Virus record (IMG/VR): IMGVR_UViG_3300046318_000318
Source: a virus
Taxonomy: Duplodnaviria > Caudoviricetes
DNA: 64,000 nt
Strand: one strand, 5' to 3'
Shown here: positions 6,872 to 19,700 of the stretch, in pieces
Position numbering within the stretch: the first letter of the stretch is position 1
Layout: each line of letters starts with the position of its first letter
Made by a program: the position numbers and the translations under genes
The notes under the pieces: model-generated
Seen by the model: only the letters and a program-made list of their open reading frames with translations
The model's database searches: none
What the model was told of the DNA's origin: nothing

Positions 6872-7063
6872 TTACTTAACCGCAGCTAATTTAGCTTGTA
6901 ATCTTTGCTTCACCAAACTGTGAATCACTTCAGCAGTGGCTTTAGATCCATTAATCGCGTTAGAGATATCGTTACCAGCAATGTTGGCAACCACACTCTT
7001 GACGATCTGACCTACGTTAGCAATAACCACTGTGTTGTGGACGGTGAGATTAGGAATAGCCAT
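6872..7063 (-). CDS. Small hypothetical protein (63 aa)
   Basis: ATG 2 nt after the beta exon-3 stop, with AAGG upstream. Confidence 0.55.
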   Translation of the reverse strand: MAIPNLTVHNTVVIANVGQIVKSVVANIAGNDISNAINGSKATAEVIHSLVKQRLQAKLAAVK

Positions 7064-7065
7064 GT

Positions 7066-7272
7066 TTAACCTTTATAGACTTTAACTGCCTTTTCGGCAA
7101 CTTTCTTTAACAACGTGGTGGTGGTACCTATCAGAAATGGAGAATTAACAACACGAGCCATAATGGATCTAAATCCAAAAATAGCATCGACTCTTTCACC
7201 AGATTCTGTATGGACATCATAGTCCATAATTTCACCTATCACACTCTTCATTTGATTAGCGAACACAATTTT
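7066..7272 (-). CDS. rpoB: vRNAP beta-like subunit (gp178-like), exon 3 (68 aa, KIVFANQMK...)
   Basis: Joins exon 2 (...GVGD) to give GD|KIVFANQMK, equivalent to bacterial GDKMAGRHGNK; preceded by the intron terminal G at 7273. Confidence 0.85.
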   Translation of the reverse strand, partial: KIVFANQMKSVIGEIMDYDVHTESGERVDAIFGFRSIMARVVNSPFLIGTTTTLLKKVAEKAVKVYKG

Positions 7273-8890
7273 CGTTATCTTCAGATAAGGGCGTTAGTCC
7301 TATCTCGCACCATAACGCGCAGCTCTAGCTTTCACTAGATGTCGAGACTATATCTTTACCGTACTTTATAAATACGGTATCTTCCGTTTCGAACTCCACT
7401 CGGAGCCCTACAGGTTGGTAAAACCTTAGTCGTTGGCCACACTCCTATACGGAGCTTCGGTGCTGGGTTGTCCATTGTAATATCTCAACACTTTTTAAAA
7501 CCATGACGCTTACCGTTTCCAGTTTCGCTTTGGTAGCTGAGCTTTAGGAGTTTCCCGCAATTAGGAAGAATTCTACGTCGCTATTACTAGCAACTAGGAC
7601 TATCAGTACTCATTTCCTTAAAAGTGAATTCATCATAAGACTTTCCTGTTTTTAATCTATCTGCTAAAGTTCTTTTATCTAAGCCAATGTCAATTGTCAC
7701 TGATCTCTTACTTTTATATACTTTCACATCGCCAGTAGTCAGATTAGTAACTATTACCATTTTTGGTGGAGTGAATCTAGTTTCTCTGAAATTTTCAGGC
7801 CATTTGTCCTTTGACACTTTTCTGAACAAATAACCGCTATGCGATATCACATCAACTGATCGTAGTGCAGACTCTATGCGGTCCTGACTAACACCAGTCA
7901 ATTCTGACAATTCTTTCACCGACTTAGCTTTAACAACTTTTTTGGAATCTAGTTCCAAAGCCTCTAATAGAACTTTATGATGCTTACGAGCGGTTTGGAT
8001 GACAGCCTGGTTATATTGCCAGGTTCTCTTCCCAACGTCTTTTGTAAACATCAGCTCAAAACGATTCAGGAATAAATTTGCAACGATCTCATTACCATGT
8101 TTTCTATAAATGGGTTTAACTGACCGCATACCCAGATATTTGAAAGCTTTTTTAAGTGAATAATGCTCGCTTACACTGTCGGTTTCCCAGTCTTTTACAA
8201 GCACATTGACACTGTCTGTTTTCAAACCTGTAACCATGGCGTGGGTGTTATTTTCTTTTGATGTCACCCATTCTAAATTTTTTAAATCGTCGTTCTGTTT
8301 GTTTCCGTCGATGTGGTTAACAAAGAATTTATTTGCGGGATCGCTGTTTCTTAAAAAGGCTCGCGCAAGAAGAATGTGGACACACACACCTCTCCATCTA
8401 TTTTTATCAGGATCATATATTGATACTTCAGTATAACCATAAGAACTTCTTCGTCGATTCATTCTCTTGTATTTTAAAAGAGAAATTACATCTCCGGCTC
8501 TATTGATTATAAAACCAGGGAAACCTGGAATCAGTACATATCCATCTTTATAACAAATAGGGGTTCGTATTTCCATCAGCCACTGACATCTTAGTTTAAG
8601 CACTTTTGATTTACATTCAGTAAATGTTATCTTTTCCAATTCAGGTAAAGTCAACATAACCTCATAATGAGCCAAAAGACTTAACCAATGTCTGTGATAG
8701 GTTCTGTATACATCACCTATCAAAACACTAATAACATTCTTCTCAACTTTCACAGACGGGGAATTTTCATTTTCCTTGAACCAACATTCGTGATTCTGAT
8801 TAAAAACATATCTTTTATCCACTAATAAAGGTTTTAGCATATATAGATCCTGAGTTATTATTCTCACTCTATATATGGAATACTGCTTTA
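7273..8890 (-). mobile_element. Group I intron (1618 nt) with HNH homing endonuclease, in vRNAP beta at GD|K
   Basis: Minus-strand core elements: P AAUUGCGGGAA (7552-7562), Q CAACCCAGCAC (7460-7470), R CCAACGACUA (7427-7436), S AAGAUAUAGUCU (7345-7356). The 5' exon ends in U, the intron ends in G, IGS is GUC, and P2 has a GUAA tetraloop. Confidence 0.9.
7587..8840 (-). CDS. Intron-encoded HNH homing endonuclease (NUMOD4-like + HNH + repeated C-terminal DNA-binding modules); likely start ATG 8840 (417 aa)
   Basis: VHILLARAF...VNHIDGNKQNDDLKNLEWVTSKENNTHA HNH motif; AGGA RBS before ATG 8840. Confidence 0.88.
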   Translation of the reverse strand: MLKPLLVDKRYVFNQNHECWFKENENSPSVKVEKNVISVLIGDVYRTYHRHWLSLLAHYEVMLTLPELEKITFTECKSKVLKLRCQWLMEIRTPICYKDGYVLIPGFPGFIINRAGDVISLLKYKRMNRRRSSYGYTEVSIYDPDKNRWRGVCVHILLARAFLRNSDPANKFFVNHIDGNKQNDDLKNLEWVTSKENNTHAMVTGLKTDSVNVLVKDWETDSVSEHYSLKKAFKYLGMRSVKPIYRKHGNEIVANLFLNRFELMFTKDVGKRTWQYNQAVIQTARKHHKVLLEALELDSKKVVKAKSVKELSELTGVSQDRIESALRSVDVISHSGYLFRKVSKDKWPENFRETRFTPPKMVIVTNLTTGDVKVYKSKRSVTIDIGLDKRTLADRLKTGKSYDEFTFKEMSTDSPSC

Positions 8891-9799
8891 ATCACCTACG
8901 CCAGATACGGTGTCTATGGTGATGTAGAGTTTGATCTCTGCTTTGTCTAAAGCCAGTCTTGTGCCACCGACTCTATACTCGTCATTGACCTCGCCCGTCA
9001 TGGACCCATTACCTATAGACCTGGAGTTAGCAGAAAAGTTCTTATCGCTCTTATCAGCTAAAGCTCTTAAAGAAGGAGACATGTCTTCTTTAGATCCATG
9101 GTAGTAAACTTCTATTCTATCTAGCACTCCGTCATATTTAGACTTGATAGCCTGTTTAGACAGATCCGCTAAAACAGATAAAGAAGCTTCATCAAACTGA
9201 CCAGTAGAAGTAATCTCATCCTCAAGAACTAGCAGTATGTCATTAGGTTTAATCTCTTTACCGAATTCCACCACGTTGTGGATATTCTGCTTAAAAGAAA
9301 CCATAACAGACTTCATCTTGGTGGTCTTAGCTGTAGTCATACCAGAAACACGTTTAGAAACAGCAGAGCTGTCTTCATGTGTTTGGTTGGTTTCCATCAA
9401 AGCCACTTTGACAGTCATAGAGTTCTTCATCACGACACGCTTAGGATCAAGCATATCTCTTTCAAAGAACCCTGTGTTGTAAGCTATGTTATCACCCTTA
9501 ATGAATTTATCGCCAGGTTTTAACTCAGTTACAACATCGTGAGGATACACACTACCTTCTGCTTTACCATAGATACGCCCTAGTTGAACACCTTTTCTTT
9601 CACCACTTGCGTATTCGATAATTATACCACGATTGTCCACGCTGATAACTTTACCAGCTTCAGTGGCGTTAAATGCAAACAAACCACTTGTCCTGTTAGC
9701 CACTACGTAATCATAACCTGTTCTTACGATAGGTTGGTGGTAATCTCTACAAGCGATGGTATGTGCCTGCTGTATTTGGACAAAGTTGACCCGTTTTCC
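8891..9799 (-). CDS. rpoB: vRNAP beta-like subunit, exon 2 (303 aa, GKRVNF...GVGD)
   Basis: Beta-like motifs PIVRTG, GDNIAYNTGFF and ETNQTHEDSSAVS. The spliced junction SQDD|GKRVNFVQIQQAH corresponds to bacterial HDDANRALMGANMQRQ. Confidence 0.88.
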
Positions 9800-11162
9800 C
9801 TTACTGTCCAATAAAGTCGCTCAGCTTCACAGCTTACCCTCTTTACCCGGTGTGCTCAGACACCCGCCTATATTCTCATACAGGAACAGACTATATCTTC
9901 ACCCTCTGTATACAGTAGGGCGCTCTCCGCTTCGAATACCGCTAGGTATCCTACAGGTTGATAAAACCTTAGTCGTTGAACTTTACACATGGTTGATCAG
10001 AATCAACTTTAGCGTCTTAGCTGCTGATTGTCTCTACCTACTAATTTTCAAACACGTTACGTATGTGTTTTCACACTCCGCTTTGGTTTAGTAGTCTAAC
10101 AAGAGTTTCCAGCAATTCAAAGAGATTCTTTGAAAAGTTTCTTTTCCAAAGGACTTAACTGACTGTAATACACATACTTTCTACCGTCACGGTGAACCTT
10201 TGCTTCTTGGTTTAAACGCCAGTGTAAGGTAGTTATTTTAATACCATTATCGCTAGCGCAACTTGTGACAGACTTATATATTTTTCTTTCGTCTGTCAGA
10301 CAGTTCCAAACAGTTATGACTTTACACCCTGTGAAATTTTCATAACTTTCAATGAAATCTGTGTGTGTTACCCAAGGTATCGAATTATCATTAGGTTTAA
10401 GCTGAATAAAATTATCTATAACCGGCTGATCTTTGTTGTAAAACAACTGAGAAACATAACCTGTGCTTAAGCCTAATTTTGACGATACTTCATTACAACT
10501 ACTGTAGATAGTGATTCTTTCAATAGCTGGATATGTTCTCACCGCAACGCTTTTGTTCCTACCGTAAAGTTTTTTCGCTTCTTCTAAATCTTTTATTTCA
10601 ACCCAAGGTGTTTTATCTTTCTTCAGTTTGAATTGTTGACCAGATGGCGATAATCTTTTACCTAGGTATCTTAATCTGTATAAAACAGTATCCTTACTAA
10701 CACCAAGATGTTTGGAACATTCAATGATGCTAGGGTATTCCGATATCAAACCACTTTTAACATCTCTTACTAAAATAGGTAAACACTTTCTACTTAAGTT
10801 GTTAAGACCTGCGTGTTCAACGTTCTGTTTAGGTGTTACGATTTCAAGATTTTCAAGTGTGTTGTTGTGTTTATTACCGTCCTTATGGTTTACATACAAC
10901 TCACCAAACTTTTCATAATCGCTGCAAATAAAACAAAACGCTATCAGTCTATGCAATCCCCAAGTTAAGGTTACGCCATTATCGGATGTTAATCTAATAT
11001 TGGTGTAACCTGCTGGATTTATAGATCCTTTTAAAAACTTTTCTCTATGAAACGAAAAAACTTTTCCATCTGGCGAGACTCTGTATTTAGAGTAACCTTT
11101 TGGAATCTTAAAATTAGGTGTATTACATTCAGTCATATACAGTTCCTCACTGTATATATTTA
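9800..11162 (-). mobile_element. Group I intron (1363 nt) with HNH homing endonuclease, in vRNAP beta at DD|GKR
   Basis: P AAUUGCUGGAA (10107-10117), Q CAAUCAGCAGC (10020-10030), R GUUCAACGACUA (9970-9981), S AAGAUAUAGUCU (9888-9899); GAU| 5' site and terminal G at 9800. Confidence 0.9.
10117..11136 (-). CDS. Intron-encoded HNH homing endonuclease (339 aa)
   Basis: KYRVSPDGKVFS NUMOD4-like segment; LHRLIAFCF...VNHKDGNKHNNTLENLEIVTPKQNVEHA HNH motif; GAGGA RBS. Confidence 0.9.
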   Translation of the reverse strand: MTECNTPNFKIPKGYSKYRVSPDGKVFSFHREKFLKGSINPAGYTNIRLTSDNGVTLTWGLHRLIAFCFICSDYEKFGELYVNHKDGNKHNNTLENLEIVTPKQNVEHAGLNNLSRKCLPILVRDVKSGLISEYPSIIECSKHLGVSKDTVLYRLRYLGKRLSPSGQQFKLKKDKTPWVEIKDLEEAKKLYGRNKSVAVRTYPAIERITIYSSCNEVSSKLGLSTGYVSQLFYNKDQPVIDNFIQLKPNDNSIPWVTHTDFIESYENFTGCKVITVWNCLTDERKIYKSVTSCASDNGIKITTLHWRLNQEAKVHRDGRKYVYYSQLSPLEKKLFKESL

Positions 11163-14100
11163 ATCATCTTGACTACTACCTGGTGCAAGCATAGTGGCTG
11201 TGCTTACCATAGAAGCAGGTGTTACATTTTTATCAGCTTTGATAATCCCACGCATATCCTTAAAATTTGGATTAGACGAAAGATAGAAGTTGATACCCAC
11301 GTCACCGCTGTCAACAGAAGCTTCAGAGACCACACCTACATCAGACACATGAAAAGCTCTGGTGGCTTTGTTCATGGATTCTTTACCACGACCACCTTCA
11401 CCTACATATGTCACTATCTCAGACTCTTTCATGTTCTGGATAGGGTTGATATCCTCTACTAACTTAATAGCAGGGTCTTTCATAATAGCTGACCATACAG
11501 CAAAAGGAGACATATCTATCTTGGATCTTCCAGAGATATTCTTATTCCTATACTGTCTTATAGCTGTAGATAATTGACTGTAGACTATGCCAGAGATACG
11601 CTCATAACCTCTGATACGCATGTGGTTTAGGTCTTGAGTATCTGGATGGCTGTAATCTACAAGCATCTCAGTAGACTTGACTAACAAACCTTCAAAAGTA
11701 ACAGGCATGTTCATCTGCTCAAGTATGGTTTTAGTAATCCCATCTATAAACAGTTGACGATAGACATCCAGTTCACGTATGTATAGTGAGCTCAGAGATT
11801 TACTTTCAAACAAGTTGAAATAAACATCTTTGTCGTTATACATCTCTACCGGATATTGTTTTAGAGTTTTCTCAAAGTCTAAGAAGCCAGAGAGTATTAA
11901 ACTGGCTGCTTTCTGTTTCCTGCTGAATATGTAAGACACATCAGCAAACTTCAAAGCGTATTCATCTTGCTGAAGATCCTTTTGGAACCTGCCTTCGACG
12001 ACACGATACTTGGCTTTAAGAAGAGTCAGTAGTTTATCTAGCCCAATGTAGTACCCAAGCACTACACCGACAGGTATTGTCTTAGCAAATACTCTAAGCT
12101 CTGTAAAGTCTACAGGTGATTTGGTTTTATCTATCCCTAGCATGGTCTCTATATGACCTATGCTGACATATCCACCTGCTTTATAGATAAAGAATTCTTC
12201 AGTCTCAGCCATCACGATAGGTTCCAGCTTAGCTGTAAACCCACAGACTATACTTCCGTTCTTCTCTATTTTAGCAAAGTCGTCAGAAATAACAGATCGA
12301 TCTCTTTCATCAAAGATGAAAGTATTACCTGCTATCTTAAACGTTTTATAGTTTTGAGACAGAAAGCTATAGAGGTAAGGAGCTTTAAGTAAGTTGTTAT
12401 ACACGTTAGCAGGACCCAGATCTGTAATGACAGGGTTTTCTAACATGCTTAACTTACTGATGTTTCTCAATAACCAATCGTAAGAGCTGTTGGCTTTCTT
12501 ATCAGATACAGCCACAAACGTCTTACCGTAATAGCTGGTTAAAGCTACTGTGATAGGGTCTATTTTGCGGATAGGTGTATCTACACGCTGTTTTCTGTAA
12601 GAGTAAGAAGACCCACCTACCTTCATCACTCCGTCTTCATCCACACACGGTACTCTGAACCGTATCGTAGAAGCCATACCGTCTACAGGTTTAAACTGTA
12701 CTTCATGTACATCGTAGGCACCCATGACACTACTTTCATTTCTGATCTCATAGCTGGTTATAGCTACACCAGCTTTCTGTAAACCAGACACCATCATCAA
12801 CATGTCTTTCTTCATGACTTTGTTGATGTAAGCTTTATCAAAAGACTGTAAAGAAGATTCAGCCATCGTCTTGTCTAACATGTATTCAGACGTGACTATT
12901 TTATTGTCTTCTTCATTTAAAGTGACATCAGCTACTGTAACAGAGTTCAACTCAGAGATTTTCTTCTTGCTACCGTAAGGATCTTCTATGTTGTCAAATT
13001 CTTCAGCCAGCTTAACCATCTTTTTATAATCAGCTGCTGACAACCTACCAGTATCAGCAGCAGCATCTATAGACATTTTAAGACTTTCTTTATAAGTCTT
13101 ATCCCCATAGACTTCAGCTTGTACTTGTTCTTCTGTAAATACTCTCTTGAGTTTGGTTTCGGTAACTGCACCTTCACCATCTACAGATATGCCTTTCTTG
13201 GCTAACTTGTTCTTCTGTACAGTATCAGCTACTTTGACTTCTTCATCCACTTGAGCCAATATAGCGTCAATATCTTTTATATCGTTTAAACCATCGTCTT
13301 CATCCTCAGAAACCTCAGGCTTTTTATCTGTGGTTTCTTTTGCTTTAGACTTGGTAACACCATGCATGAAAGCATCTGATACCTCACCAGGTAGATCTAC
13401 CTCATCATCGAAGTCAACAGACTCTGCATCCTGAACAGGATCTTCCATCAAAGGTTCTTCTTCTGCAATCTCAGAAGAAGTATTCAGCTCCATCAAAAAC
13501 TTCAGAAACAACTTCTGGATGTGGGTATCCTCAAGCTGCATAGTGTCATTAAAGCCTGTTAGGTTGTTATGTCCTTTGATCCAACTAGACATATAACCTA
13601 AGTTAACGATAGAAGCTTTATTGGTTTTGTTAAAGAAAACGATGTTTACTTTAGAAAGCTTGTCCTCAGTGATACCAGACAAAACACTTTGACCTGAGTT
13701 CTCTTTATCCAACCATTTGTAAACCTCAAGAACAAACAGTTTCTCAACTGTATTAAATACAGTCAGTAAACCTGTACTAGGCTTGGCTTTAGAGAACTGT
13801 TCTAAGAAGCTAACTGCAGGTACCTCTTTAGGCACAGACATGAAGATAAAGTGATGCCTTCCAGATATCCCACAATCTTTAGACACGTTTTCAAATAACG
13901 TATTATAAAGATTCTTAAACTTGAAATAAGGCGTTGTAGCCAGATCCATGTATTTATAACTCTCATGCAGATAGTTATAATTTTTCACGATTAAAGTACT
14001 GCTGTCTTTAACAACAGCTGTGGCTTCAGGTCTGTATTGAAACAGTTTGTTTTTCAGATGGAAATCTCTGATAGCCACTTTCAATACAAAAGGTACCTTC

Positions 14101-14333
14101 CTGGCACCACCTTCTGTAAAGTCCGACACAAAGACATAGTCAGTAGCTATCCTGTTTTTAAAACCTTTGAAATAAAGCTTAGAAACATCAAGATCCATAC
14201 CACCATCCATAGTGAGGTGGTGGTAAACAGAATCTCTGGGAAAGCTTATGAAATCCACTATTTTTGGACTGACTAAGTTCTGTATGCGTCTGGTACCTGA
14301 TTCTCTATAGAAGAGATTAAAAAGTTTTTGCAT
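11163..14333 (-). CDS. rpoB: vRNAP beta-like subunit (gp178-like), exon 1 (1057 aa); spliced product 1057+303+68 = 1428 aa
   Basis: RIRGYER, EDINPIQ, VTYVGEGGRGKES...RAFHVSDVGVVSEASVDSGDVG (fork/Rif-region-like) motifs; the ORF ends at the splice site SQDD|UAA. Confidence 0.88.
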
Positions 14334-14338
14334 GTTGT

Positions 14339-14500
14339 TTAACCTGTCATGTTGGCCAGTGTTAACTCAAGAACATCATCTCCAGCACTGAAGTTCATCT
14401 TGTTATTTACACCGACATAGAAATCTCTAGAATTTAATTTGTTTCTGATCTCTAACTTAGACTCTTCAGACAGAACGCAAACTAAAGACATCGTATCACC
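14339..14500 (-). CDS. rpoC: vRNAP beta-prime-like subunit (gp180-like), exon 3 (GDTMS..., 53 aa)
   Basis: Starts GGT GAT ACG ATG directly after the intron terminal G at 14501 and completes ADFD|GDTM. Confidence 0.88.
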   Translation of the reverse strand, partial: GDTMSLVCVLSEESKLEIRNKLNSRDFYVGVNNKMNFSAGDDVLELTLANMTG

Positions 14501-14839
14501 CTTATTGTCCAGTAAAGTCGCTCGGTTATATAAACCTACTCTCTTTACCCGGTGTGCTAAGACACCCGCCTGTACTTTCATACAGGAACAGACCATATCA
14601 CCATCTTCAGCTTTATCTGGTAAGATGCTTCCCACTTCGGATCTGCTAGATCCTACTCCCTTACGGGATGGTCGTTGAACGTTCACCTATACGGTGCTTC
14701 GCTGCTGATAACCCAATCCTAATCTTTTCAAACCGTGGCTTTGGCTTTCGCCTCGCGGTGGTGATTAGGCTCTAAGGGTGTTCCAGCAATTCAAGAAGTT
14801 TTCATTACAGAATTTCTTCTATATGCGACAATGTTACTT
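14501..14839 (-). mobile_element. ORF-less group I intron (339 nt), downstream member of the tandem pair in the beta-prime catalytic motif
   Basis: P 14781-14791, Q 14701-14710, R GUUCAACGACCA (14669-14680), S GAUAUGGUC (14591-14599). P7 is GACCA/UGGUC, a compensatory change from GACUA/UAGUC in the other three introns. P1 is CGAU|AA/UUGUCG; P10 is GUAACAUU/GGUGAUAC (7 of 8 positions pair). Confidence 0.9.
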
Positions 14840-14845
14840 ATCGAA
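14840..14845 (-). CDS. rpoC: 6-nt micro-exon (TTC GAT = Phe-Asp) of the vRNAP beta-prime catalytic ADFDGD motif (exon 2)
   Basis: Flanked by the upstream intron end (...GGACAAUAGG|) and the downstream intron start (|AAGUAACAUUGUCG). It is the exact piece needed to rebuild LGAD-FD-GDTM in frame. Confidence 0.85.
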
Positions 14846-15256
14846 CCTATTGTCCAGTTACAGTCGTTCGGTTTCAAACCTATCATAAAGTAACCCGGTG
14901 TGCTTAGACACCCGCCTTTGGCTTTCCCAAAGGAGCAGACTATATCTTCACCCTCTGTTTATACAGTAGGGTGTTTCCCACTTCGGAGATACTATCTCCT
15001 ACACCTTGCTTAAGGGTTAGTCGTTGAACTTTACGCATGGTTGGCTATAAAGTCAACTTTAGCGTCTTAGCTGCTGATTACCCATTGTTACATTTAATCC
15101 GTTTTCAAACCTTGGCTTTGATTTTCATCTAGCGGTGGTGGATTAACTTTAGGGTGTTCCAGCAATTCAAGAAAAATCTCTTTAAATATTACTATTTAAG
15201 AGGACAATCGGATATAAAATATGAATACTTTTAACTCACTTTTTATATCCTTTTTT
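14846..15256 (-). mobile_element. ORF-less group I intron (411 nt), upstream member of the tandem pair in the beta-prime catalytic motif
   Basis: P 15157-15167, Q 15070-15079, R 15018-15029, S 14937-14948. P2 is UAAAUA-GUAA-UAUUUA; the 5' exon ends GCU GAU and the intron ends in G at 14846. Confidence 0.9.
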
Positions 15257-16702
15257 ATCAGCACCCAATCTCCCAAGCTGCTTCACAGCGGGCGAGAACG
15301 AATTATAAAAACCATTTCCGTGTATGGGAAATTCAGCACAGACAAGTTCTGTAGGTTCCCAGTTATCATCCAGTAAAGTTCTGGTGTCAGCTTCTACTGT
15401 AGACTTCAGGTACACGTAGCTTGGATATATACTACCATACCCAGTGATAGGGTAACGCGTAGCAAAACAAGGTATCTCTTCAGACCCGTGATAAACACTT
15501 AACATGATCAGCTCAGTTAAAGTGATAGGGCTCACTTCTTCTTTGCTGTATCTTTCAGGTAGTTCATCTATGTCTTGTAAGAATCGATATGTGTTGTCCT
15601 TACCTTTAAAGATCAATCCTGCGTAATGACCAGATATCTCTATATAGTCATGTCTTAGGTTCTCTTGTCCGTAAGTAGCAAAGACTTTCTCTAGACCTTC
15701 GTTGGTCATCCACTTATCGTACTCTTTACCATTGATAGGTACAGTTACTTTCTTCAGAGTCTTTTTATCTACCAGTATCATGGGTGTGTTAGGTCCTGTA
15801 AAGACCTTAGACATAAACCCATCTCTTACGTTTCTAATAGAAAGAGGTAGAGTAGCTCTTAGAAACTGATAAAGACCCACCACAGTTTGTTCTGTGGAAA
15901 CAGACTTAGGACCAAAGAGTTGTGTAGACTTACTTACATAAGAGGTAATAACGTTTCTGGTAGAATGAAAAACTTTTCTACCTGCCCACTTACCTAGTAT
16001 GAGTTTAGACTTACCTTCTAACAGATTCTTAATATACTCAAAGATCTCATTACAAGCTATCTGTAGCTGAAACCTCATGTTGTTGAAATACTCAGCATTT
16101 AACTTAGAGTCTACCGTACCTATGACACCAGAAAGAGAAAGTACTCTTCTATAGAGTCCGTTGATCTCATCTTCGCTAGGTTGACTATTCTCATCTAGAG
16201 TATAGTCTCTCATACCAGCTGGCATCACTACAAACTTATCTATCAGAGCTTTACTGATATATTTATTTACCAGCTTAATATTAAACTCTCTCTTAGGAGA
16301 TGGTCTGTCTTCAAACTTGATATCCTTATAATGCTTAACAAAGAAATCAAATCCAGTTTTACCTGTGACAGGATCAGACTTAACAAAGTCTTTAAGTTCT
16401 GTGTCAAAGACAGCGTAAGCTCTAGATGACATGATGTCACCGTAAAGACTCTTAAGATCATAAAGAGCTTTAAAGATGATAGGATGGAAGATCTGGATGT
16501 TTAGATCTATATAAGAGAACATACGGTTTCTCTTCTCTTCCCCCACCATACCGAACGTCTCAGTGCTGAATAAACCATCTGGATGAAAGTTCTTACTGAA
16601 CCCGTCCATGATGTCAAGTACTTTAACAGGTCTTAAACTTCGAATGTCTAGATCTGCTAGGTTAAGCAAATCCAGGTTAAAGGGTAAAGAAGGTGATTGC
16701 AT
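15257..16702 (-). CDS. rpoC: vRNAP beta-prime-like subunit (gp180-like), exon 1 (482 aa); spliced product 482+2+53 = 537 aa
   Basis: FHPDGLFSTETFG, VMPAGMRD, GKWAGRKVFHSTRNVIT and ATRYPITG motifs (beta-prime regions A-D). The ORF runs ...LGAD then KKGYKK* instead of FDGD. Confidence 0.9.
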
Positions 16703-16746
16703 GCTTGATCCTATGAAATTAATCGGCCTTAAAAGGATTACCCAAA

Positions 16747-19700
16747 ATGGCTAAGAATGTAAAGAAAAAATTACAACGTGATGAGTTTGATCTAGATAAT
16801 GATCTAGACTTTGATGACTTTGGTATGGATGACATATCTTCCGAAATGTCACCAGAGTCTAGTAATTCTAAATCTAGATCCCCTGTCACGGAAGTTTTTA
16901 AAGGCACCATTTCTGGTGCTGCTGGGGAAGTGGTAAGGCCTGAGTTTTTAGCTAAGACTTTAGAAGGTGCTTTACCAGAAACTTTCTCTACCAGTTTCAG
17001 CACAGCTGATAAGGTAATAGACAAAACGTCTAAGCTATATGATGATACTATCAGGGAATTAAAGCCCCAGCTTAATAACCTCGGTAGAAAAATCGATAAG
17101 CTGGTGCCTCAGGAAGAAGGTTTCCTGAGAAGAATGACAGATAAGTTCTTGGAAATGACTGGTGGTAAAGACCAGATTTCCAATTCTTCTTCTGAAGGTC
17201 AACTAGAACAAAGCATCAACAGCACAATAGCTGGAGTATTTGCAGCTAATCAAGAAGCTCAAATACAGATGTCTGCTCGTTCTAACGCACAAGAGAATGT
17301 GCGTGAAGGCGTGGCTAAGAAACGTTTCGATAGCGAAATAGGTGTCTTAGGCGGTATCCACGATAACATAGCCAGATTGACCAGCTATAACGACACTGTA
17401 ACTCAAGCTTATCAAAAGAAAAGTTTAGAGTTACAGCTGAGATCCTTCTTTGCTCAGAAAGAACTTTTAGACTTTACCAGAAAGTACCAAGAAGTATCCA
17501 CTAAGCAATTCGAGGTCATCAGTAAGAACACGGCTTTACCTGAGTTTGTTAAGATACATCAGAGTGAACGGTTTAAAGAAGAATTACAGAACAGAGCTGT
17601 AAGTAAGATAACCAATAAGTTATTTGGCGATAATAGCTTTGTGGATAACTTCTTTAAGCGTCTTACTCCTTACATAGGTGAGAAGGTTTCGGAGATAGCT
17701 CAGGGTATTGAGCAAGGTGCCGGTGCTATCGATATGATAGGCATGGGCGTGGAGACCAACAGATCAATGGGTGGGTCAGCCGCTAGTTTCTTTGGTGAGT
17801 CTATTGGCAGCATGGGGGCGGGTTACATAAGAGATCTTCTCACGCCTGAACTTAGAAAAGAAATTGAAAAAGAGTTTCCTGATCTGAAGATGACCGGTCA
17901 GAAATGGGCAAACCTTATAAAGAACCCACACGAGCTTCTTAAGAAATTCAGAAAATCTGATTGGCTGCAGGGCGGATTAAGTAGTGATAATATTGTTAAA
18001 CGTCTAGCTGCCGAGACTCTGAGCGACATGAGTCACATGGGTGATAATGAAGGACTCAAAGATTCAATAAGCGCTAGAAAAATTTATGCTGGTGATGTTC
18101 CAGGAGTCGAACAACATACCAACAGCAAGATGTTTGTTAGCGTTACCGAGATTATACCTGGCTATTTAGCCAGGATGTATCGAGAACTTAAGATCGCTAA
18201 CGGTGGTGGTGAAACAACACCTCTGACTGTCTTTGATGAAAAGGCAGGAGAGTTCAAAACTGAGGATAAACTTAAAAGCGATGTTTTAGCCAATTTGGAA
18301 AAAACAGCTAAAGATTCTTCTACGTCTTTTAACCGTAAATTAAAAGACGTTACATCTGCAATACTAGGTAATGAAAGCACACCTGAGGAACAAGAACAGA
18401 CAAACAAGTTCTTGGCGGGATTCACTTTTGAGAATTCAAGTGATACTTCCATGCAGGCTATGTTTGACAGTAAATCTTTTAAAGATCTTCCGTCAAAGAT
18501 TAGAGAAAAGTTAACAGAGAAACTATTCCATAAATTAGGGGCTGAAGCCAACCCTGAGCGTGAGGGTAATAAAGGTAGAATGATGAAGGATCTGGAAGAA
18601 CTCAGATCCATGGCTCCTAATATACAAGGTACTATCAACGATCACCTTATGGCTAACCAAACTTCCGCGTTCAATGAACTCGGTATAGTTAAAATGGATA
18701 GTGGTGGTAAGTGGAGTCTTGATAGTGACAAATACAAAGATTGGTTATTAAAACAAGCTGAGTCTGAACGATTAGGTACGTCTGACATCAACGCCAAAAC
18801 TAATATTACTAACTTTAACGGAGTGCAGCTTCCTGGACATAATGGTAAATCTGTGCTTGAAAGTTTAAGCAAGACTGGTATCTTTAATTGGAATTACAAG
18901 AAGGGTCTTGGGGAAGACACAGAGAATGCTAAGATAGGTCCTATGGCCCAAGAGGTCAAAGCCAATTTTGGTAACGCTGCTGCTCCAGATGGTAAGAAAA
19001 TAGATCTGGTTAGCATGAACGGTATAGCCATGGCTGCCATCAAAGAGTTAGATGGTAAGGTATCTAAAGTCATAGATAACAAACCTGAAAACGTCGACGA
19101 TATCTTGGAAATGGCTAAGGTACAGACAGACTATCTTAAACAAATATCTGAGAATACCAAACTAACCAATGAGAAGATGGATAACCTAGGTAAATTGACT
19201 TTACTCAATATACCTGGTATAACTATCAACAGAAACTTCTTTAAATCCATAGGTAGTTCTTTCATGTCAGCTGGTAAGCTGATTAAAGACATGACCATAG
19301 GGACTGGTAGATTTGGACTTAAACTCACAGGTGGTATATTAGGCGCTGGGTTAAAAGGCGCCGGATCTGTGGTGGGTGGTCTTTATAAGAACAAAGATAA
19401 AATAGATTCTGGTATACGCACTGTTGGCAGATTAGGAAGAGACCTTATTACTAACGTAGGAGATATGGCTTATAAAGGTGCAGAACGCTTAGGCGGTAGC
19501 GTTTTTAAGATGGCTGCGTCTTTGGTAAGAGGTACCGTGAATCTGTTTATCGATACAGATATTTATATTAAAGGTGAACTTGCTCCTCGTATCAAAAAGA
19601 TATTGGTGGAGTCTGGTGAGTATTACGATAAGCAATCTGGAACCGTCATTAAGAAGTTCTCTGATATCAAAGGTGATATCGTAGATAAGTCCGGCAACAT

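Follow-up and report, generated by a model that had tools for sequence, protein, structure and literature searches.

The window analyzed here, a 64-kb stretch of DNA (IMG/VR record IMGVR_UViG_3300046318_000318), originates from an uncultured giant freshwater phiKZ-like jumbo phage. Its genes for the beta′-N and beta subunits of a phiKZ-like virion RNA polymerase (RNAP) are interrupted by four group I introns, designated I1 to I4, whose ribozyme cores seem to have exchanged structural modules. A search with the Rfam covariance model RF00028 (gathering score of 50) revealed exactly four matches in the window at the gathering score and E≤0.01. All of them are located on the minus strand, span the full length of the model and have scores of 79.1–85.8 bits. 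The intron boundaries were fixed by reading the sequence, and every one of the four introns has a final G. An open reading frame (ORF) encoding an HNH endonuclease is present between the 5′ splice site and the guide in I3 and I4, while I1 and I2 contain none. The identified features are as follows (here and below, a slash within a motif marks a splice junction):

15257–16702, minus strand: exon 1 of the virion RNAP beta′-N gene, ending ...RLGAD (tblastn to phiKZ-like beta′, alignment with Ralstonia phage RP12)
14846–15256, minus strand: I1, 411 nt, no ORF, after the first Asp of ADFDGD (RF00028, 82 bits)
14840–14845, minus strand: micro-exon TTCGAT (Phe-Asp), 6 nt (sequence, RP12 alignment)
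14501–14839, minus strand: I2, 339 nt, no ORF, after the second Asp of ADFDGD (RF00028, 79 bits)
14339–14500, minus strand: last exon of beta′-N, GDTMSL... (RP12 alignment)
11163–14333, minus strand: exon 1 of the virion RNAP beta gene, ending ...SSQDD (GAT GAT) (RP12 alignment)
9800–11162, minus strand: I3, 1363 nt, at the DD/ site (RF00028, 86 bits)
10117–11136, minus strand: HNH/NUMOD endonuclease, 339 aa, in the P1 loop of I3 (Pfam HNH_3, NUMOD1, NUMOD4, I-HmuI-like)
10016–10103, minus strand: P5 module of I3 (88 nt), for which sister phage B (see below) has an identical copy in its thyA intron and a different version in its own I3
8891–9799, minus strand: exon 2 of beta, GKRVNF...SGVGD (GGT GAT) (RP12 alignment)
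7273–8890, minus strand: I4, 1618 nt, at the GD/K site (RF00028, 84 bits)
7587–8867, minus strand: HNH endonuclease, 426 aa, in the P1 loop of I4 (Pfam HNH_3)
7066–7272, minus strand: last exon of beta, KIVFANQMK... (RP12 alignment)

The nearest cultured relatives, as determined by tblastn, are Ralstonia and Burkholderia jumbo phages (40–46% aa identity). The predicted spliced beta′ product reads ...RLGAD/FD/GDTMS..., i.e. the Mg-binding ADFDGD loop is cut twice, around the 6-nt exon, and the predicted beta product reads ...PGSSQDD/GKRVNF... and ...SGVGD/KIVFANQMK... at its two junctions. Joined in this way, beta′ and beta can be aligned without gaps over all four junctions with the intronless genes of phage RP12. 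At the level of sequence, the four elements are confirmed as group I introns residing in RNAP genes. The 5′ exons end with GCT GAT (I1), TTC GAT (I2), GAT GAT (I3) and GGT GAT (I4), and all insertions are in phase 0; the GAU codon that a preliminary description of the window had placed before all four introns was thus read in each case.

The same description had assigned GUC to every guide. This triplet is present next to P2 in all four introns (with two candidates in I3), where it would pair GAU and the first 2–3 intron bases. Across the wider family to which these introns belong, the guide varies with the site (GUC, GCC or GUU). A consensus fold of 18 family members recovered P2, P3, P4, P5, P5a, P6, P7.2, P8 and P9.1, with compensatory (double) changes in 36 of the 49 consensus pairs. 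The long-range helix P3 co-varies by site type (UUUCUU with GGGAAA, or CUCUUU with GGAGAG), and it is not broken by the module swaps described below. The introns are of the phage type and may be akin to subgroup IA2 (that of T4 td, nrdB and sunY), which is marked by additional hairpins, P7.1 and P7.2, between P7 and the 3′ strand of P3; two short hairpins occupy this position here (P7.2 predicted with covariation).

The predicted P1 of I2 (CGAU/AA with UUGUCG) is almost that of I1, and the two insertion sites lie 6 nt apart. P1 helices this similar (GAU/AA with UUGUC) could allow the 5′ splice site of I1 to be used together with the 3′ splice site of I2 (positions 14827–15259, minus strand). 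The FD micro-exon could therefore be skipped, giving GAD/GDT and a polymerase minus one catalytic Asp.

Mosaic composition of the intron cores

Two measures of identity are used below, i.e. the percentage of aligned columns and a stricter measure applied in the table of modules. Within the window, I1 and I3 (the introns at 14846 and 9800) were previously described as having long core stretches in common; all of the quoted strings are present, and the identity of the two introns reaches 86% in the long P6 and 81% in P8. The dual likeness ascribed to I2 (at 14501) was also recovered, since this intron matches I1 around P4–P5 (78% over P3–P5) and I3 in P9 and the 3′ tail (84–85% of aligned columns, 80% by the stricter measure). 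I3 and I4 are 82% identical (of aligned columns) in the P7.1–7.2 region. Overall, I4 (at 7273) is the most divergent (61–64% identity to the other three), as had been noticed. The least similar segment between sites is the P1–P2/guide region (41–48% of aligned columns, 61–62% by the stricter measure). The pairwise homoplasy index (PHI) recombination test gave P=0.002 for the four window introns alone, and the longest exact tract common to any of them is 27 nt.

Two sister phages were found in IMG/VR, A (L005; IMGVR_UViG_3300046328_000321) and B (L006), with 85% and 81% aa identity to the window in beta′, respectively; a scan of JGI metagenomes for further relatives of the window returned only one contig, which was B itself. 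Introns of the window, A and B are distinguished by the prefixes W_, A_ and B_. Mapping of presence and absence across these relatives, which had been suggested as a check, showed that the GAU sites of I1, I2 and I3 are occupied in both sisters as well, and that I4 is missing from each of them, its site being an uninterrupted GGT GAT AAA.

Orthologous introns of the three phages carry different modules. A_I1 is identical to A_I3 over an exact 88-nt tract covering P3–P5 (69 consecutive polymorphic columns, permutation P<2e-4), and this tract differs from the I1 and I3 orthologs in the window and in B. The permutation test counted shared gaps as matches, so that some short runs (alignment columns 7–27) are artifacts, and the exchange claims made here are confined to long tracts confirmed as exact substrings. 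W_I3 and B_I3 differ in 29 columns, 23 of which fall inside a 45-column stretch (hypergeometric P=4e-19), and they are near-identical elsewhere. Within this stretch, B_I3 has the apex found in I2 of the same genome (a single mismatch over 37 nt), and W_I3 is indistinguishable from the B thyA intron along 88 nt (window positions 10103–10016). Further combinations of modules were identified: (i) A_I2 and A_I3 have P6 in common, (ii) P9 of A_I3 is of the I1 type and P9 of W_I3 and B_I3 of the I2 type, (iii) in the non-virion RNAP (nvRNAP) genes of A, the fourth beta′ intron (after FDG) has a tract of 82 nt in common with the beta intron, (iv) the third nvRNAP beta′ intron of A (after PNAD) combines P5 of W_I3 with P6 of I1, and (v) the thyA intron combines P5 of W_I3, P6 of A_I2/A_I3 and P7.1–7.2 of I2.

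The same pattern is present in the cultured phage phiKZ, whose genome is finished. Its gp179 intron, in the virion beta′ gene, and its gp56 intron, in the non-virion beta′ gene (L003:2440–2804 and L004:2450–2824), contain an identical 83-nt 3′ tract that extends from J8/7 to near the 3′ end.

A PHI test performed on nine introns gave z=-8.7. In trees built for separate segments (P1–P2, P3–P5, P6–P7.2 and P8–tail), P1–P2 groups the introns by site, while the trees for the other three segments conflict with each other and group them by genome (often) or with introns of other sites. The mosaic, recombinant nature of the cores, proposed from the window alone, is therefore upheld by the PHI tests, the conflicting segment trees, the clustered differences and the exact tracts of 82–88 nt.

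The existence of an in-genome family is likewise supported by modules common within genomes and by the proximity of I1–I3 to their window neighbors. I1 is 72–76% identical to I2 and I3 and 64% to the same-site phiKZ intron, and I3 is 72% identical to its own neighbors and 64% to the same-site intron of phage PhiPA3. The opposite relation, i.e. greater similarity to same-site introns of distant phages, had been named as an observation that would speak against such a family. It does not apply to I1–I3, but applies weakly to I4, whose nearest ribozyme (69% identity) is the same-site intron of Bacillus phage vB_BspM_AgentSmith.

Endonucleases, insertion sites and the GAU codon

The ORF of I3 encodes a protein with HNH_3, NUMOD1, NUMOD4 and I-HmuI NUMOD-like domains (Pfam), and that of I4 a protein with an HNH_3 domain, in which NUMOD1 falls below the cut-off. 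The I3 endonuclease is 98.8% identical to its counterpart in B, and its best outside match is gp210 of PhiPA3 (37.5% over 325 aa), compared with 25% identity to the I4 endonuclease. Judged by these values, it is an ortholog of PhiPA3 gp210, which has been shown experimentally to nick the intronless DD site (Birkholz et al., Science 2024, PMC11620839). The closest protein to the I4 endonuclease is AgentSmith gp112 (32% identity over 85% of the length), located at the same GGT GAT/AAA site. Thus, each endonuclease appears to have remained linked to its site even between phages that are very distantly related, whereas the core seems to become more like those of its neighbors.

No closer relatives of I4 or of its endonuclease were found in IMG/VR with protein patterns and the 3′ tail motif. 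I4 may represent a recent gain or a precise loss from both sisters; its low module sharing favors recent gain. The tail motif AGCACACCGRGTAAAGAG also occurs in two more viral contigs, where it falls by chance within a protein-coding gene that has no intron.

Loss of nuclease genes, another element of the preliminary description, has a direct example in A, where the endonuclease gene of I3 is deleted. The part of A_I3 matching intron positions 109–983 of W_I3 (most of the HNH gene) is replaced by 112 nt, and what is left of the ORF amounts to ~106 nt at the 5′ end and ~60 nt at the 3′ end (L005:15677–16253). A_I1 contains ~115 extra bases in the P1 loop compared with I1 of the window (L005:11435–11605), which possibly derive from an ORF that has since disappeared.

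GAT makes up 12.8% of the T-ending codons in these genes, so that its presence before all four introns has a chance probability of ~3e-4, a naive value that assumes independence, two of the sites lying in one DxDxD motif. The wider family showed a more varied picture. The contigs of A and B carry nine and five group I introns, respectively. The nvRNAP beta′ gene of A contains four introns in a row (QRN/, VRA/, PNAD/ and FDG/), inserted after AAU, GCU, GAU and GGU. Other members at non-GAU sites are those of the nvRNAP beta gene (HG/GKG, after GGU), thyA (QR/S, after CGU) and a DnaB-like helicase gene (...FCAT/RGTF, after ACU), and the non-GAU introns draw on the same pool of modules. A survey of the window, A, B, phiKZ, PhiPA3 and the IMG/VR loci L008, L009, L011 and L014 yielded 14 distinct sites, all in phase 0, six of which are GAU.

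The row of introns in the nvRNAP beta′ gene of A (L017:1039–2559, contig ~79060–80580) is separated by exons of 102, 12 and 9 nt (QRN/PSLL...VRA/PNAD/FDG/DALNV), an arrangement denser than the 6-nt exon case of the window. The DxDxD loop of beta′ offers three GAU sites, each of which is used somewhere, the third in locus L009. In this record (L009:1941–2606; IMGVR_UViG_3300035661_000011), the motif is GADHDGD and the intron follows the third Asp (GAT/), a position found in none of the other phages that were compared; the intron scores below the Rfam gathering threshold, and the 3′ tail of the family is present.

The idea that GAU acts as a targeting rule is not supported, as introns built from the same modules follow AAU, GCU, GGU, CGU and ACU, and a change of site is accompanied by a change of guide. 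We conclude that GAU is a side-effect of two factors: the pile-up of introns in Asp-rich catalytic loops and the rule that U occupies position -1.

Module exchange and alternative explanations

The most probable explanation, in our view, is that site-held introns have piled up on catalytic codons of the RNAP genes and that their cores exchange modules by ectopic gene conversion. According to this model, the four window introns are part of a larger family that has accumulated at invariant catalytic codons. They would splice by means of a very short P1, in which GAU and 2–3 intron bases are paired to (U/A)(U/A)GUC next to P2. Their sites would be held, and sometimes newly won, by DNA-level homing with site-specific HNH nicking endonucleases. 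The comparisons described above show that the cores of co-resident introns recombine, with the near-invariant core segments (the P3/P4 AATTGC, the P4/P6 junction AATCAGCAGC, P7 GTTCAACGAC and J8/7 GAAGATATAGTCT) as probable homology anchors and the self-contained hairpins between them (P5, P6, P7.1–7.2, P8, P9 and the 3′ tail) as the swapped cassettes. The P1–P2 region, the endonuclease gene and the long-range P3 pairing stay with the site. Endonuclease genes may subsequently decay or be deleted, and selection would retain only those chimeras that still fold. The prevalence of GAU in the window may have three causes: (i) the U at position -1, (ii) insertion between codons and (iii) the Asp-rich nature of the Mg-binding and neighboring motifs (DxDxD, DD, GD).

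Several observations weigh against this model. A megablast search matched the P3–P6 region of I2 with Pseudomonas phage PAP02, and over P3–P5 the PAP02 intron is closer to I2 (87%) than I1 is (78%). The likeness of I1 and I2 around P4–P5, although real, is therefore not evidence of exchange within the genome; module types circulate widely, not every in-genome likeness reflects local exchange, and some modules of the mosaic may have come from other genomes. GAU is enriched family-wide (the 6 of 14 sites correspond to a binomial P of ~5e-3), so that a weak guide-related bias may persist. Moreover, the window, A and B were assembled from metagenomes, in which repeats can be mis-phased, and the 88-nt tract shared with the thyA-type intron could in principle confuse an assembler. 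Mis-phasing inside the window is unlikely, since it contains no exact tract longer than 27 nt, and the concern is further mitigated by the isolate phiKZ, which shows the same pattern.

Contigs from four freshwater DNA runs, matched to positions 7000–16800, have breaks at 10016 and 10117 that lead into thyA-type flanks, joints between intron copies (e.g. 10120 to 14838 and 9897 to 14998) and possibly an I3 devoid of its endonuclease gene (10120 to 11164). Both forms of the I3 P5 apex occur in contigs from independent runs, and one contig spans the B-like apex. These contigs are short, with 90% likeness, and they weakly suggest real polymorphism and other mosaic forms.

A different origin of the family builds on the reverse splicing suggested in the preliminary description. 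In this scenario, an intron with a GUC guide spread in the genome by reverse splicing into RNAP mRNAs at GAU, and the products were reverse-transcribed and recombined into the DNA; recombination and nuclease loss came later. A guide that pairs only three exon bases would make any GAU a possible target, and GAU precedes all four introns and is enriched among the 14 sites; I1 and I2, with P1 helices that are nearly the same, lie 6 nt apart in a GAT-NNN-GAT-NNN-GAT repeat, and the second-Asp site, whose introns contain no ORF, was seen in this survey only in this lineage. Dispersal of this kind should place related introns at heterologous sites of one genome, as observed here. It should also leave 4–6 nt complementary to one guide in common, and only GAU (3 nt) is common in the window. 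Recent spread with one guide further predicts that the guide/P1–P2 region is conserved between the dispersed copies, but this is their least similar segment. The non-GAU sites occupied from the same module pool and the site-specific endonucleases of I3 and I4, which have same-site orthologs in distant phages, also argue against this route, and no reverse transcriptase was seen in the stretch that was read, in which no search aimed at one was made. Spread of the family by reverse splicing is thus improbable, and no data presented here require this process.

The best candidate for reverse splicing is I2, given that its P1 is almost that of I1 and its site is only 6 nt away. Colonization of the second-Asp site at the RNA level, by reverse splicing through 3–5 nt of GAU(AA) pairing with UUGUC, is nevertheless doubtful. 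If it did occur, the regularly spaced GAT codons of the Mg-binding loop (GAT-NNN-GAT-NNN-GAT) would offer reverse splicing a ready-made series of target sites, and I2 would be the first viral case of a pathway that, according to a review (PMC3984707), has never been shown directly in nature.

Slightly less probable still is that the mosaics arise only between co-infecting phages, through same-site homing and partial co-conversion, with no exchange inside a genome. Co-conversion during homing is well established (PMC12908238), the module pool is common to unrelated phages (e.g. PAP02 and nepoznato) and freshwater metagenomes contain several variants of these loci. Such a process does not account for exact tracts of 82–88 nt at different sites of one genome (A_I1/A_I3, the nvRNAP pair of A, phiKZ gp179/gp56) where same-site orthologs differ, or for a swapped apex in B_I3 that matches B's own I2. 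Finally, structural constraint or convergence without recombination can hardly explain the shared stretches: P3/P4, P7 and J8/7 are indeed common to all group I introns of this type, but the exact tracts lie in peripheral, otherwise variable hairpins, and the clustering of differences between orthologs, the PHI test and the conflicting segment trees speak against it.

Relation to known introns and significance

Mobile group I introns with HNH endonucleases are already known in the RNAP genes of chimalliviruses (PhiPA3 and phiKZ). The gp210 intron of PhiPA3, in its virion RNAP beta gene (gp211/209), interrupts the same gene as I3 at the same point (GAT GAT/), with a homologous HNH endonuclease between the 5′ splice site and the ribozyme core. 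It differs from I3 in its core (64% identity) and in its 3′ tail, which is of the I4/phiKZ type; the PhiPA3 study (PMC11620839) reported no mosaic analysis. The gp179 and gp56 introns of phiKZ, in the beta′-N genes gp180 and gp55, were predicted by Mesyanzhinov 2002, as cited in PMC10914365. The first occupies the exact I1 site (LGAD/FDGD) and the second lies at N/ADFDGD, one codon pair upstream of it. Unlike I1 and I2, both carry HNH genes, and phiKZ has one intron per motif, whereas the window has two, 6 nt apart. Splicing of the two phiKZ introns was not detected by ONT-cappable-seq.

The AgentSmith intron (genes 111–113) shares with I4 the beta gene and the GD/K site (GGT GAT/AAA), but it belongs to a distant phage, its 3′ tail is of the I1–I3 type and it is unannotated in the database record. 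At this locus (L016:4794–6462; RF00028, 82 bits), gene 111, annotated as a "putative HNH endonuclease", corresponds to the RNAP beta subunit, gene 112 to the intron endonuclease and gene 113 to the last beta exon (GIGD/KVVFGNQMK). In PAP02 (L033:1756–2750), a related group I intron is inserted in a T7-like RNAP gene after ...DACCSG (GGT), in the DxxCSG motif; a GIY-YIG-like ORF is located downstream of the core, and the pieces are annotated as separate genes.

Phage T4 also has several related phage-type group I introns in one genome, and domain shuffling between those of td, nrdB and sunY in the laboratory (Bryk and Belfort, Nature, 1990) reportedly gave functional chimeric ribozymes. Whereas the T4 chimeras were selected in the laboratory, those described here are natural and repeated, involve three sister genomes and at least 10 introns, and consist of defined cassettes. 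Related introns at different sites of one genome are also a feature of rDNA, for whose group I introns spread by reverse splicing has been proposed (Bhattacharya 2005; Birgisdottir & Johansen 2005, as quoted in PMC3984707). In contrast to these, the introns of the window occupy protein-coding sites, their guides vary from site to site, and they encode, or have recently lost, endonucleases specific to the site. A literature search for natural intron-intron recombination in phages returned nothing relevant, which does not imply novelty, as most older subscription papers were not covered.

What the present data add is a natural record of concerted, cassette-wise evolution of the core, in which guide, endonuclease and insertion site are inherited separately. 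Whole-intron trees are consequently unusable for tracing the spread of these introns, and annotation pipelines split the polymerase genes that contain them into fragments. The introns form direct repeats of ~350 nt that flank essential exons. Crossovers between such repeats would delete these exons, so that only conversion products should survive. The data constitute a natural experiment on interchangeable ribozyme domains, useful for ribozyme engineering, and the exchange could be measured directly in phiKZ, which is culturable.

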